This document shows positions 36,371 to 45,821 of a stretch of DNA of 64,000 bases, piece by piece. The notes beneath the pieces were generated by a model. It was not told the DNA's origin. It saw only the letters and a program-made list of their open reading frames with translations, and did no database searches. The DNA is taken from positions 10,194 through 74,193 of the forward strand of contig CAKPEJ010000002.1 in the NCBI GenBank assembly GCA_934149325.1, written 5' to 3'. This DNA is from an uncultured Bacilli bacterium (GTDB taxonomy: Bacteria; Bacillota_I; Bacilli_A; RF39; UBA660). Numbering within the stretch: the first letter of the stretch is position 1; each line of letters starts with the position of its first letter. The translations under genes were made by a program, and so were the position numbers.

Positions 36371-36447
36371 ATTATCACCATAAAAATTATAACATAAATC
36401 GACAAAAAAAGGAAATGTATTTAAACATTTCCAAATTTTAACTATTT

Positions 36448-37017
36448 TTATTCAAATAAATCTATTTTCCAAGTTCCATTATCATTTTTAAATACAATGT
36501 ATAAAGGATATTCATCCTTATCACCTTGTGAATTATCAATAGTTTGACCTGTTGCAAACACTGTATCATCTGTTGCATATAAAATAGTTAAAGGTCTTAT
36601 AGATTGATTAGTACGCCCAAATAAAACGCTAAAAAATGCTGGATTAGTATTTGATGAATTTGTAACCATTTTTTCTATTATATTAAGTGATTTTTTTGTA
36701 AAATAAGGGCTTAATTCATTTTCATCATATTTAGTATATTCTTCATGTGAATTAATTACATTATATGCTTCTTTATAAACATCACTTACTTCACTTAATA
36801 CTTTTTTTGTATCTGTTTTATTACTTTCATTTTTTTCTAAATCATCTACCTTTTTGTTTTGTGACGTAATCTTTTCTTCTTCTTTTATATACTTATTTGC
36901 ATTTTTTGAATCATATACAACATATGTTGATAATCCAATTAAAGCAAGTACTAAAAGAATTATAACCACTATCAATCCTTTACTTTGTTTAACAACTACA
37001 TTACTACCATTATCCAT
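36448..37017 (-). CDS. Hypothetical membrane-anchored protein (single N-terminal TM)
   Basis: ORF. TM LIVVIILLVLALIGLSTYVVY. Confidence 0.5.
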   Translation of the reverse strand: MDNGSNVVVKQSKGLIVVIILLVLALIGLSTYVVYDSKNANKYIKEEEKITSQNKKVDDLEKNESNKTDTKKVLSEVSDVYKEAYNVINSHEEYTKYDENELSPYFTKKSLNIIEKMVTNSSNTNPAFFSVLFGRTNQSIRPLTILYATDDTVFATGQTIDNSQGDKDEYPLYIVFKNDNGTWKIDLFE

Positions 37018-37242
37018 ATTCTTCTCCTCCTATTTTAATTTTACCACATTAAATATATTTTTTATAAAATTATAATAGTCTATTGTAAACTTTATGCAAA
37101 CTAATTTTTGTACATTTTTTTCTAATTTTAAAACTATCACATAAAGGTTTTAAGCATTTATAACATCAGTTGTTATTTAAATTTTTGACATTTATAAACT
37201 ATTATGATAGAATAGTCCACCATTAGAAATGAGGGGGATATT

Positions 37243-37824
37243 ATGAAAAAAATAGATTCACTATTAATGTTAAAGTATATGTTATCAGAAGGTTTTAATC
37301 CTAACAATTACCAAAGAATATTAGAATTATTACAATCTGCACCTTTATCATTATCAAAAGAATTAAGAGCATATAATCCATATTTATTATCTAAAAAAGT
37401 AAATTATCAAGAACTAAATGATTATTGTATTGATGGAGCTTATGGTTATTTAGAAGATAGTAAAATTTTAGTTCCTAAAACAATTTATAATGATTATCAT
37501 TTTTTACATCAACCTGTAAAAAGATTATATAAAAAATATAGTTATGACATACCATCTATTGAAGAATTTGATACTGTTGTCTTTTTTGAGGATTTTTCAG
37601 AAGGAGATTTATCGGCTGAACAAGAAGATCATTTGATCAATGCTATGAAAAATAGTTTAAAGTTTAAAAATTTATATTTTGGGCTTATCACACCAATGAA
37701 CTACCCACAAATGGATTACGTTGATAAAACAATCAAACAAAAAATTGATCAAGCAAATCGTTATAAATTATCATACGAAACGGTAAGTGAGAAAAATAAA
37801 AAACTATATTTAATTAGAAAATAA
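37243..37824 (+). CDS. Hypothetical protein (193 aa)
   Basis: ORF with SD GAGGGGGA before ATG. No recognisable domain. Confidence 0.5.
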   Translation: MKKIDSLLMLKYMLSEGFNPNNYQRILELLQSAPLSLSKELRAYNPYLLSKKVNYQELNDYCIDGAYGYLEDSKILVPKTIYNDYHFLHQPVKRLYKKYSYDIPSIEEFDTVVFFEDFSEGDLSAEQEDHLINAMKNSLKFKNLYFGLITPMNYPQMDYVDKTIKQKIDQANRYKLSYETVSEKNKKLYLIRK

Positions 37825-37825
37825 A

Positions 37826-37871
37826 AGTAATAAAGATCTTAAATTAATATCTTTATTACTTTTTTTATTTT
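37826..37871 (+). terminator. Rho-independent terminator (12-bp perfect stem AGTAATAAAGAT/ATCTTTATTACT + T-run)
   Basis: Perfect 12-bp inverted repeat, 11-nt loop, followed by TTTTTTATTTT immediately after the stop at 37824. Confidence 0.7.
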
Positions 37872-37983
37872 ATAGATTCTTTTTATGAGAAATTGTATAG
37901 TTGTTTGCTACAACATTGTTTTTTATTTTTTATGAACAACATGAACTTTATTCTAGTTAAACTTTGTTTCACTTGATTGTATT

Positions 37984-38499
37984 TTAGCAAATTTTATTAC
38001 AATTTTCTATATCTTTTACAAGAATTGAATTTATGCCATTCGCATTTAATAGATCAATAACATCACTTCTATCATCTATAAATAATATTTCTTCTAAATT
38101 ACAATTATTAAGCCTTTTAATAATCTTTACACCATCTAATTTTAACTCTTGTGTAGAAGCAGATATAACCTCAATATCATCACCATAATGCTTATTAATA
38201 AAATTTTGTTTTGATTTTAAATGGAATGAAAACTTCATTCCGGATAAACAATACATTTTGATATTCTTATTTCTTAAATCATTAATAAAATTATATAATA
38301 CTTCAGATCTCATACATGGTTCAATATACTCATAAAAAGTATCAGGATTCTGATAAGCATTTAAATAATAACCCAATCTTTTTTCTTCACTTTCTCCACG
38401 ATGTATTAAAAAATCTTTATCCTTATGGATTGCTAATGTATCATCAAAATCAAAAATTGCTACTTTAACATTATCTAAATTTATATTTTCTATTTTCAT
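37984..38499 (-). CDS. HAD-superfamily hydrolase-like protein
   Basis: N-terminal DxD motif (VAIFDFDDTLAIH) typical of HAD phosphatases. 171 aa. Confidence 0.55.
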   Translation of the reverse strand: MKIENINLDNVKVAIFDFDDTLAIHKDKDFLIHRGESEEKRLGYYLNAYQNPDTFYEYIEPCMRSEVLYNFINDLRNKNIKMYCLSGMKFSFHLKSKQNFINKHYGDDIEVISASTQELKLDGVKIIKRLNNCNLEEILFIDDRSDVIDLLNANGINSILVKDIENCNKIC

Positions 38500-38815
38500 T
38501 ATTTCATCTCACTTTCAATTTACTATTTATCATTTTATATATTATATCATGTAGATGAACATAATAAATTAATTAAACTTAAATTTTGTTGTTTAAAACG
38601 TTTTATTTTACTTTTTAGATAATAGGAAAGTTGTTGCTCCAAAAATTCATGAAAAAATGGAACAAGAAAATAGTTATAAGAAATCAATTTAATAAAAAAG
38701 TCTTAAAGTATGATACTTTAGGACTTTTCTGTTATTATATATAATATCATATTTTATTTGTACACACTATTCCCATTTACCTTCTAAATTATTTATACCT
38801 AATTTTTATAAATAT

Positions 38816-43929: not shown

Positions 43930-43974
43930 ATAGAAAAGCCCGCAATCACTTATTTTATGCGGATTCGCGGGCTT
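43930..43974 (-). terminator. Hairpin terminator (AAGCCCGCAATC/GATTCGCGGGCTT) following secA-tail remnant 2
   Basis: GC-rich 12-bp imperfect stem and 14-nt loop, then CUUUUCUAUG on the minus strand. Confidence 0.5.
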
Positions 43975-44140
43975 ATTTACCACAACACTGTTTATACTTG
44001 CGTCCACTGCCACAAGAACATAATTCATTTTCATCTATCTTTTCTACTTTTCTTGTTGTTTTTACTTTATCTTTACTATCATTTGTTCCTGTTATTTTAG
44101 TAACTTCGTTTCTTTCTTGGTTTCGTTTAATTACTGCTTT
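43973..44140 (-). pseudogene. secA 3'-tail remnant 2: start-less 55-codon ORF LLKAVIKRNQERNEVTKITGTNDSKDKVKTTRKVEKIDENELCSCGSGRKYKQCCGK*
   Basis: Aligns residue-for-residue with the last ~57 aa of the secA product in this window ([59 protein letters not shown]). Stops immediately upstream, no ATG. Confidence 0.65.
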
Positions 44141-44230
44141 TAATAATTATTATTTATATGTTACATAATATTCGTTTCTGACGTATAAAAATTTGTTATT
44201 ATGATAACAATACTGTTTATTCTTAAAATT

Positions 44231-44650
44231 TTATACAGCATATTCAGATTTTAAACTCATACTCTTAACTTTGTTTTTTTCTTTTTTTACAATTTTATTA
44301 TCTTCTAATTTTAATCCTAGTACGTCAAGAGCATTTTCATTTTTTGAAGCACGTATAACATCAATTGGTATTTTATACATATAATTTATTTCCATTTGTT
44401 CTCTATTGAAATTTGGTTTTAATATACAATACCAATTCCCATTTTCATCATAAGATTTAAAATATATTAACTTTGAATAATCTAATGGATAAACCATATT
44501 TACTTTACTATTCATTTCTTCTAAATTACTATCTATTTTACTATCAAACGCTTCTATTTTGCTCAATGATAATATCTTACTTCCTGTTGCATCATAATTA
44601 TATATTAATGCAAGTGTTGCTGAATCCTGTATAAATATTCTTGAACTCAT
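44231..44650 (-). CDS. Hypothetical protein (139 aa)
   Basis: ORF with SD GGAGGAG 8 nt before ATG. Lies 45 nt downstream of secA-tail remnant 1. Confidence 0.5.
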   Translation of the reverse strand: MSSRIFIQDSATLALIYNYDATGSKILSLSKIEAFDSKIDSNLEEMNSKVNMVYPLDYSKLIYFKSYDENGNWYCILKPNFNREQMEINYMYKIPIDVIRASKNENALDVLGLKLEDNKIVKKEKNKVKSMSLKSEYAV

Positions 44651-44695
44651 TTTATCTCCTCCACCAATAATTTTTAACTTTATAAAATGATTTAT

Positions 44696-44752
44696 TTACC
44701 ACAACATTGTTTATACTTGCGTCCTGAGCCACAAGTTCGTTCTTTTTCAGTA
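44696..44752 (-). pseudogene. secA 3'-tail remnant 1: start-less 18-codon ORF EKERTCGSGRKYKQCCGK*
   Basis: Same SEC-C motif and ~40 nt near-identical to remnant 3. TAG stop directly upstream. Confidence 0.55.
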
Positions 44753-44976
44753 TATATGATACTATGAAATATATATAGTATTATATATTTTTCAAGGAAA
44801 ATGGATCTGGACGGTATTGGTATTATGTCATACATATAGTATATATAGAACTATACAATTTTTAATTTTTGCACACAAATTGAACACATTGTTATCATCA
44901 TATCATTCGTTCTCTAAGTACATACTACCATTATGAAAAGCACAATTAATTTAACGACAATGTTGCTTCGATAAAA

Positions 44977-45552
44977 TTATTTGGTTTTTTTCGAAGATTT
45001 CTGTTTTATTAACTCACCCGCATAATTATAAATATTTAAAGGCAAATCATTTTTTTCACAAATTTCATATATTTTATCAACAAACAATTTGATTTCTTCA
45101 TGCTGTAGTTGTTCTTGTGAAAATGGAAGTATCAATCCTTCTATATATTCTAAATCAATTTTATTAGATACCTGTACTTCACCTATCGCAAGGCCTTTAG
45201 TTTGTTCTTTGGGAACAATTGGCACCTCTCTTGAAATAGCAAAGGCAATATAATTATAATTGAAGCAGGTATAATTTCCTTCATCTTTTTTATCAATACA
45301 TTTCTTTATAAATCTATTTTCCGGATCAGATAACGATACTCTATTTTTGTGAATATCTTCATCATAATACATCCATTTTTTATCTTCCGGTATATCAAGT
45401 TTAAAAGAGGGATTTCCATATTCAAAGTTAATACCTTCTTTCTCAAGAAAGCCACGTGAACAAATTGCTTTACTTTTTAGAATGTTGATTAATCTTTCAT
45501 AAGTTCTTTTATCATTAATATTACCAATTTGATGAATGTAATAATTTATCAT
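44977..45552 (-). CDS. Hypothetical protein (191 aa), first gene downstream of secA
   Basis: ORF. No recognisable domain. Confidence 0.5.
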   Translation of the reverse strand: MINYYIHQIGNINDKRTYERLINILKSKAICSRGFLEKEGINFEYGNPSFKLDIPEDKKWMYYDEDIHKNRVSLSDPENRFIKKCIDKKDEGNYTCFNYNYIAFAISREVPIVPKEQTKGLAIGEVQVSNKIDLEYIEGLILPFSQEQLQHEEIKLFVDKIYEICEKNDLPLNIYNYAGELIKQKSSKKTK

Positions 45553-45821
45553 TTGTAAACCTTCTTTCTCAAATTACTTTATTTAACACAACAACAATTA
45601 TATTTTTGAAGTAGTCAAAAATAGTCGCAAGTTTAATCTTTTACAATATACAATCAGTTATATTACAATTTTTGCAAAATTTAAAATATTTAAGCAGCTA
45701 TTATTTAAATGAAATATTGTTTTTTCATTTATGAGCACAAAATGTGCACAAATGGTGTTGTGTGCATAATTTTGTGCCTTTTTTTGACTATTGTCAAACT
45801 CACAATTACTTATAAAACAAG

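Follow-up and report, generated by a model that had tools for sequence, protein, structure and literature searches.

Small gene cassettes between copies of the secA 3' end in an uncultured gut Bacilli genome, a probable product of serial site-specific integration

In the DNA analysed here, a 64-kb stretch of contig CAKPEJ010000002.1 from an uncultured Bacilli bacterium (the window), the genes secA and prfB are separated by an accessory island whose secA-proximal 4.4 kb is divided into four units of 0.7–1.8 kb each by copies of the last 42 nt of secA, referred to below as tails. This array probably arose by serial site-specific integration at the secA tail, followed by decay of the integrated elements to integrase-less cassettes and by repeat-mediated reshuffling. 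The secA 3' end would then be a dedicated integration hotspot that is apparently unreported, as no report of secA as an attachment site was found in the full-text literature library searched, an absence of evidence that applies within that library only. Coordinates are those of the window, and L numbers denote individual loci or contigs.

Tails and cassettes next to secA

The secA tail extends from TGTGG to the stop codon and encodes CGSG[KR]KYKxCCGK. In an nhmmer search of the 64-kb window, a profile built from 77 distinct tails matched four full tails, the resident one included (E between about 1e-12 and 1e-11), and a single partial tail. Every match has the orientation of secA, and no further one occurs in the window. 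These tails and the two genes bounding the island are as follows:

45822-48326, minus: secA, 834 aa, the intact target gene (open reading frame and translation)
45863-45822, minus: resident tail, TGTGG...TAG, E 2.6e-11, read as a putative attL-type core
44733-44692, minus: tail copy 1, E 3.6e-12
44014-43973, minus: tail copy 2, profile match
43227-43186, minus: tail copy 3, E 3.4e-12
41423-41396, minus: partial tail, first 28 of the 42 nt, E 6e-4
35290-36370, minus: prfB (start at 36370), the far boundary of the island, with a GGAGG...CTTTGA +1 frameshift site (CTTTGA at ~36300)

A degenerate tail proposed by a repeat search at 45579-45620 (64% identity) was rejected on its profile E value of 36, and no inverted repeat was detected at the tails by the repeat finder. 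An earlier note on this DNA had listed three decayed copies of the secA tail; three full internal copies are indeed present, although they are not decayed, since the CGSG[KR]KYKxCCGK-stop frame is kept, and the additional partial copy was missed, as was the likely role of the copies as attachment sites, that is, as scars of an integrase family that targets secA. The direct repeats of ~100 bp described in the same note correspond to a long tail copy (43974-44153 versus 45823-46005, 71–72% identity). Tail copy 2 is the end of a 180-nt secA 3' fragment (43973-44153) that shows 84% identity to the secA end of another species (L001) versus 72% to the resident secA.

All genes from secA to prfB lie on the minus strand except p193 (plus). 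The four cassettes defined by the tails have the following components:

44692-45821, minus: cassette 1, 1,130 bp, consisting of a left end, p191, arm A and tail copy 1
45553-45821, minus: left end of cassette 1, with GGCACAAAA, ATGCACACAA and TGTGCACATT repeats
44977-45552, minus: p191, no family match
44734-44976, minus: arm A, 74–80% identity to arms that precede tail copies in L007 and L001
43973-44691, minus: cassette 2, consisting of a 41-nt spacer, p139 and the 180-nt secA 3' fragment ending in tail copy 2
44231-44650, minus: p139, no family match
43186-43972, minus: cassette 3, consisting of flank X, p143, arm C and tail copy 3
~43933-43972, minus: terminator hairpin of flank X, in cassette 3
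43386-43817, minus: p143, no family match
43231-43385, minus: arm C, in cassette 3
41396-43185, minus: cassette 4, consisting of a left end, a GNAT pseudogene, dinD, arm B and the partial tail
42990-43185, minus: left end of cassette 4, a terminator and three TTAGATAAGT copies
42505-42971, minus: GNAT pseudogene, two frames and three in-frame stops relative to an intact 164-aa homologue in L083
41583-42416, minus: dinD, NCBIfam equivalog match of 332 bits (cut-off 242), PADLOC PDC-S13
41424-41582, minus: arm B, 73–78% identity to arms that precede tails in L001 and L095

Neither p191, p139 and p143 nor p193, located further downstream, has a match in Pfam, PADLOC, NCBIfam or PHROGs. The cassette ends contain repeated motifs: six exact copies of TTAGATAAGT are found in the window against 0.66 expected, all six in the orientation of secA and at the ends of cassettes 3 and 4, including those of cassette 3 at 43881 and 43332. 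In cassette 1, repeats of the TGTGCAC type occupy the left end, where integrase elements hold their spacer repeats, and p191 stands in the position expected for the integrase. TTAGATAAGT and the TGNNNACA-type repeats are putative binding sites for the arm domain of such an enzyme. The motif ATAATACTATAT, considered for arm A, proved uninformative in DNA as AT-rich as this. Moreover, L095-L098, L083 and L007 contain flank X and arm C in combination with different cargo.

Variation among species and strains, and the integrase of related loci

A scan for the SecA C-terminus in one genome per species yielded 80 loci. In Bacillus and Clostridium (~30 loci), prfB begins 140–500 nt after secA, and the adjacency of both genes is the rule outside the clade of uncultured Bacilli. 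Within this clade, prfB is located 0.14–8.6 kb from secA, or more than 10 kb away, and the gene content after secA is different in every species. The relatives of the window are genome bins of uncultured Bacilli/Tenericutes from gut samples, the closest with a SecA identity of 84%, and an exact database look-up of the SecA of the window returned no record. This comparison of the secA–prfB interval had been set beforehand as the test of whether the DNA is accessory, a claim that is borne out: the content of the interval varies per species, even between conspecific strains, and, therefore, the DNA is accessory and inserted, not ancestral. The notion of one inserted island needs amendment, as the interval does not represent a single insertion but four secA-side cassettes (45821-41396) and a shared segment (41395-36371).

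Tails are not restricted to the window. In the genomes of nine relatives, secA is followed by one to three additional truncated tails, which lie on its strand and 0.7–3.4 kb apart. In at least 10 genomes, the truncated tails have an identical start just before TGTGG and stand behind at least three unrelated arm families, while arms within one family are conserved between species despite differing cargo. In addition, 13 species-representative contigs terminate no more than 600 nt after the stop codon of secA (L002, L003, L012-L014, L016, L017, L023, L027, L034, L036, L039 and L040), which fits assembly breaks at a repeated, strain-variable locus; the array thus offers an account of why genome bins often break directly after secA.

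A tyrosine integrase with the Pfam domains Arm-DNA-bind_4, SAM_3 and Phage_integrase is encoded 85–260 nt after secA or a tail in eight species genomes, being intact in three and fragmentary in five. Retrieval from metagenomes by the integrase alone yielded 80 loci (56–73% identity), among which 65 have secA with a tail, 12 others a tail, one no tail, and two are too short to judge, so that a tail accompanies the integrase in 77 of 78 assessable loci. The distance from the end of the tail to the start of the integrase in these 77 metagenomic loci is 156–270 nt, with a median of 229, and this spacer contains two to five copies, in most loci at least three, of an 8-mer whose sequence depends on the integrase subgroup, namely TGCAAACA, TGCGAACA, TGGAAACA, TGGCGACA, GTGGACAA or ATGTGCAC. 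Such behaviour would be expected of arm-type sites, and the 8-mers are regarded as putative sites of this kind. Two degraded elements preserve both ends: L001 has the order tail, integrase pseudogene, arm A, tail, and L085 has the secA tail, an integrase fragment, a helix-turn-helix (HTH) gene, hsdM, hsdS, an arm and a tail, followed by p139. A scan of viral contigs with the integrase found no relative and thus gives no support for a phage origin. As a separate observation, 16 integrase loci (L122, L140, L153, L158, L165, L175 and about ten others) contain a second integrase paralogue 3–6.5 kb downstream, with no tail upstream of the paralogue; it is preceded by a small excisionase-like HTH gene in the 11 loci where the upstream sequence was read, and it may belong to a separate or nested element.

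Strain polymorphism was evident among 20 contigs, L081-L100, from Hadza and further gut metagenomes, which were obtained by exact-protein look-ups of p139 and the WYL regulator encoded further downstream in the island. One of them, L084, comes from an independent assembly and matches the window with 100% identity along 9.9 kb. At least six array types are found next to secA among conspecific contigs:

p191, p139, p143, GNAT-dinD
p139, p143
p139, p143, dinD
HTH-hsdM-hsdS alone
a longer array, which comprises genes for 86 aa and for a tRNA-synthetase-like protein of 543 aa, a pair of methyltransferase genes and a gene for 231 aa
that longer array with two copies of the 86-aa cassette

Cassette 1 behaves as a clean 1,130-bp indel between two tails: the window, L084 and L095 have it, L081, L086 and L093 lack it, and the presence/absence junction falls inside the tail. 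The 86-aa cassette is found in L097 (1781-3205) as a tandem duplicate with a period of 712 nt, between three tails. Besides this, the cassette gene at 4478-6109 of L095 encodes a 543-aa protein resembling class-I aminoacyl-tRNA synthetases, which could be an extra or truncated synthetase copy and possibly an immunity or resistance gene.

One cassette has also spread horizontally. The body of the p139 cassette is 97–98.7% identical in four hosts whose secA bodies are 73–83% identical, and the cassette occupies array positions from 1 to 4 or later, always starting 41 nt after the stop codon of a tail. The 3' end of secA itself takes part in this variation, as conspecific secA genes retain 98–100% nt identity as far as TGTGG and lose it immediately beyond, and an alignment of conspecific secA ends shows that the remaining 33 nt of the resident tail co-vary with the first cassette. 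The 77 unique tails vary at synonymous positions only. Furthermore, positions 36–42 show 9–12% mismatch between tails that are followed by one and the same cassette in different upstream contexts, against 48–62% between tails with a common upstream context and different downstream cassettes.

Site-specific integration, rival explanations and known systems

In the favoured mechanism, the last 42 nt of secA would serve as the attachment site in the chromosome at which integrative elements of one family dock, each encoding a tyrosine integrase of the lambda/Tn916 type with an arm-binding domain. Each element would bring its own 42-nt copy, and integration would rebuild secA with the last 11 codons of the element, the previous tail copy being displaced downstream behind an element-specific arm. 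Repeated integration at the secA-proximal tail would generate a tandem stack, and loss of the integrase and of most element genes would leave one- or two-gene cassettes between tails; the window would then hold four integrase-less cassettes (45821-41396) with an older accessory segment beyond. The integrase is presumed to be the catalyst of the integration events, crossover would take place at or near TGTGG, and homologous recombination between the short repeats of tails and arms may later delete, duplicate and swap cassettes.

Compared with what is expected of a site-specific island at a gene 3' end, the locus has tail repeats that bound its units next to an intact secA, and it shows polymorphism with junctions at the repeats, except for one indel in an arm repeat; an integrase gene beside the attachment site is missing from the window and present in relatives. 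The locus is thus a tyrosine-integrase 3'-end island in every tested respect but the integrase, which is lost from this copy.

A number of observations weigh against this mechanism. Neither an excised circle nor an attP junction was observed, and the 6–10 kb available for intact integrase elements such as L010, L038 and L102 did not extend to their right ends. The 64-kb window contains no integrase gene (tblastn E>6), and none was found in 20 kb around each conspecific locus, so that no catalyst is demonstrated for this species. The usual arms are missing from the p139 cassette, in which the secA fragment takes the place of the right arm. In L081, where a 1,774-bp segment (43321-41548) is missing, the boundary of this cassette-4 indel falls not in a tail but in a 24-nt arm repeat, which spans a TTAGATAAGT copy (43332-43341 and 41534-41543). 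Finally, tail positions 6–27 are mosaic relative to both sides, a linkage unlike that left by one fixed crossover, and a single fixed crossover point within the tail could not be established by linkage analysis of the 77 tails. Taken together, the sharp TGTGG edge, the 3' end travelling with the downstream cassette and the mosaic middle imply that the middle of the tail has been reshuffled. The mosaic points to gene conversion or to a second exchange point, and the repetition of TGTGG at tail positions 31–35 may be linked to the latter.

The strongest rival, whose chances are put at somewhat below even, regards the integrase-less cassettes not as decayed remnants but as the working units of an integron-like platform, on which a cognate integrase, provided in trans from another place in the cell or from a co-resident element, excises single cassettes and re-inserts them at any tail. 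It would account for the occurrence of one cassette, with 97–99% identity, in four species-level backgrounds and at various array positions, for the retention of both end modules and repeated motifs in the cassettes, and for the tandem duplicate in L097. Moreover, arm-A-type cassettes lie upstream of intact integrase elements in related metagenomic loci and, therefore, were inserted after the integrase element, and the internal tails vary at synonymous positions only, as if they had cycled through the coding position. Cassettes adjacent to secA would be expressed by read-through from secA; that of p139, with no own terminator or promoter region and no terminator in its spacer, could indeed be co-transcribed with secA when first in the array. 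Nevertheless, no integrase is seen in this species, circular forms were not observed, and homologous recombination between 42-nt tails combined with import of DNA that has flanking homology from other strains can also produce duplication, deletion and swapping of cassettes. A broader version, in which the last 11 codons of an essential gene serve as the common site of an integron-like capture platform, and an integrase in trans moves promoterless or self-contained single-gene cassettes of which the proximal one is co-expressed, is put forward as a tentative proposal to which about one chance in three is given. If true, a trans-integrase platform would give bacteria with reduced genomes a rapidly exchangeable accessory gene pool that crosses species borders.

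An origin without any site-specific recombinase, in which RecA-type or short-homology recombination after DNA uptake builds the arrays, is regarded as unlikely. The mosaic sequence in the middle of the tail, the indel junction in the arm repeat and the hypervariability of the tail at synonymous sites, even with the same first cassette (L081 versus L082), would all agree with it. However, it explains neither the common start nucleotide of truncated tails behind unrelated arms nor the integrase ~230 nt after a tail in almost every assessable locus, and 42 nt at ~85% identity are a poor substrate for repeated insertion across species. Local tandem duplication of the secA 3' end with divergence and gene gain, or an assembly chimera, is highly improbable: the long tail copy (43973-44153) is a 180-nt duplicate of a secA 3' end, but it is nearer to the secA end of L001 than to the resident one and the same cassettes occur in other species, whereas a chimera is contradicted by the identity of L084 and by many other assemblies with the same architecture.

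The site-specific integration reading invites comparison with several known systems. Staphylococcal cassette chromosome (SCC) elements insert into the 3' end of rlmH, also called orfX, and include composite arrays and ccr-less pseudo-SCC arrays. The locus resembles them in the insertion into the last bases of a conserved gene that is left intact, the direct repeats, the tandem composites and the recombinase-less units; however, SCC elements use large serine recombinases (CcrAB/CcrC) and a site of 15–18 bp, unlike the tyrosine integrase and 42-nt coding repeat described here, and neither ccr nor an rlmH target is present. Integrons combine the integrase IntI and its attI site with attC cassettes. 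The locus resembles them in layout: small, mostly single-gene cassettes in the same orientation form a one-directional array by a fixed site, a cassette occurs at different positions and in different hosts, and the proximal cassette may be transcribed from upstream. In contrast, the integrase of the present system contains an arm-binding domain and lies downstream of the site in the orientation of secA, the repeat is the end of a coding gene, and no IntI-type integrase divergent beside attI is found in the window. The locus thus belongs neither to the integrons nor to the SCC elements because its recombinase is of a different class and attC sites appear to be lacking.

A further parallel is the accretion of integrative and conjugative elements (ICEs) and cis-mobilizable elements (CIMEs) at the 3' end of fda in Streptococcus thermophilus, as in ICESt1/ICESt3, where a tyrosine integrase also acts at a gene 3' end and integrase-less att-flanked elements are stacked with an ICE. 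Those elements are conjugative and measure tens of kb, whereas the units described here are far smaller and more numerous, with no conjugation genes seen. In its logic, the array also recalls the tycheposons of Prochlorococcus, which illustrate tRNA-anchored island growth (bioRxiv 10.1101/2020.12.28.424599). Common traits are successive integrations that push older elements inward, scattered partial target copies together with degraded integrases, and plug-in cassette cargo. The present system differs in that an essential protein-coding gene, secA, provides the target with its 3' end in place of a tRNA, that the hosts are gut Bacilli, and that the units are mostly of 0.7–1.8 kb with a single gene and without integrase or replication genes.

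These findings show that uncultured human-gut Bacilli with small genomes keep a strain-variable pool of accessory genes. The cassettes are compact, delimited mobile genes mostly without assigned function, one of them nearly unchanged between species, and, being compact, delimited and shared, they are natural candidates for functions in defence, competition or niche adaptation. Furthermore, the integrase and the 42-nt site constitute a defined pair that could possibly be used for site-specific insertion in Firmicutes-like hosts.

Distal half of the island and its surroundings

The part of the island beyond the partial tail comprises the following features:

41148-41408, minus: RhuM 3' fragment (open reading frame 41158-41382, 74 aa), Pfam and PADLOC PDC-S05 matches, fused to the partial tail
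40545-41024, minus: HTH+WYL regulator (Pfam)
39459-40490, minus: p343, 343 aa, predicted double-SIS fold (AlphaFold2, AF2, and Foldseek)
38816-39457, minus: Ham1-like nucleoside triphosphate pyrophosphatase (Pfam)
38816-41024, minus: three-gene module formed by the WYL regulator, p343 and Ham1
37984-38499, minus: HAD-like phosphatase, weak Pfam/NCBIfam match below the cut-offs, kept in all conspecific contigs
37131-37919, no strand assigned: second strain-variable segment, between the HAD gene and p189, here containing p193
37243-37824, plus: p193, hypothetical
36448-37017, minus: p189, membrane-anchored hypothetical, shared by all conspecific contigs but not by sister species

The block formed by the RhuM fragment, the WYL regulator, p343, Ham1, the HAD gene and p189 is found in every conspecific contig examined and is absent from sister species; it is proposed to be an older accessory segment. 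The RhuM fragment has 90% nt identity to the 3' end of a full-length rhuM (L006) that is itself located directly after a tail copy. This match and the fusion to the partial tail mark a deletion within an older element, and the fragment is best read from its sequence as the remnant of an rhuM gene that was once the first after a tail. In other strains, the segment at 37131-37919 is replaced by a block of ~3.4 kb with four to six called minus-strand genes (e.g., L092 12880-16296), typically of 332, 104, 122 and 447 aa, the last with faint Pfam metallophosphatase matches only.

The 484 close homologues of p343 are all unnamed or annotated as "hypothetical protein". With a shallow alignment, the AF2 model reached a pLDDT of 54 and the profile of close homologues found no PDB relative; with a deep alignment, pLDDT rose to 93.5, and Foldseek matched the model to the folds of the GlmS isomerase domain, NagB-II, the FrlB deglycase and Lmo0035 (TM score 0.6–0.74; 0.74 for 2aml), with 2aml also found by a profile search of the PDB (E 7.5e-6). 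Accordance between model and profile predicts two SIS alpha/beta domains with the fold of double-SIS phosphosugar isomerases, deaminases and deglycases. Distant relatives of p343, obtained by a cluster-representative search, are fused to Ham1 (P0159, P0182) or to PfkB-family kinases (P0203, P0210, P0245, P0254), the pairing of a PfkB kinase with SIS recalling FrlD/FrlB. In another species (L181-L184, e.g., L181 4380-11645), the neighbours of the trio are a serine recombinase of 617 aa, a protein with DUF5677 and Peptidase_C15 and a Mob_Pre relaxase, and the ensemble looks like an integrative mobilisable element. The trio is read as a mobile small-molecule module that may act on phosphosugars or nucleotides under a ligand-sensing regulator, an uncharacterised module with Rosetta-stone fusion support. 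Some conspecific strains have a Ham1 gene truncated to 114 aa (L086 15194-15538; L093 11568-11912).

All 13 elements listed between secA and prfB in the earlier note are found in that interval (45821-36371). Family and homologue searches confirm the identities of dinD, the RhuM fragment and the GNAT pseudogene, the three small genes match no family, and the WYL operon is present as the series of an HTH+WYL protein, the 343-aa protein and a Ham1-family protein; a HAD hydrolase match also exists, weak as it is. The several intrinsic terminators reported are likewise real, with eight terminator-like sites against 1.5 expected. The compositional contrast that was to be looked for is absent, as GC content is 22–28% throughout and neither the GC nor the skew profile sets the island apart from its flanks within the window. 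The label of a defence or pathogenicity island receives weak support. PADLOC matches in the island are PDC-S13 (dinD) and PDC-S05 (RhuM fragment), both candidate families, and a generic WYL model; the suggested search of the small open reading frames against defence models left p191, p139 and p143 without a match, p343 and Ham1 have none either, the WYL operon corresponds to no known defence system, and the complete set of any anti-phage system described by PADLOC models is missing from the window. Other strains, for their part, have the M and S genes of a type I restriction-modification system at the same place.

Scans of the window for tRNA genes and Rfam families returned nothing. Outside the island, a single open reading frame of 4,732 codons (901-15099, minus) is guessed from the list of open reading frames to encode a giant surface/adhesin-like protein. 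Two neighbouring genes with collagen-like repeats (29765-31504, minus), whose L083 homologue is annotated as Collagen and BclA_C, coincide with the sole GC bump of the region (0.36–0.37 versus ~0.25). Upstream of hpf, at ~53067-55866 (L081 1-2705), gene calls on the conspecific contig indicate an agr-type quorum-sensing set consisting of AgrB, an AgrD-like peptide, a histidine kinase and a response regulator.

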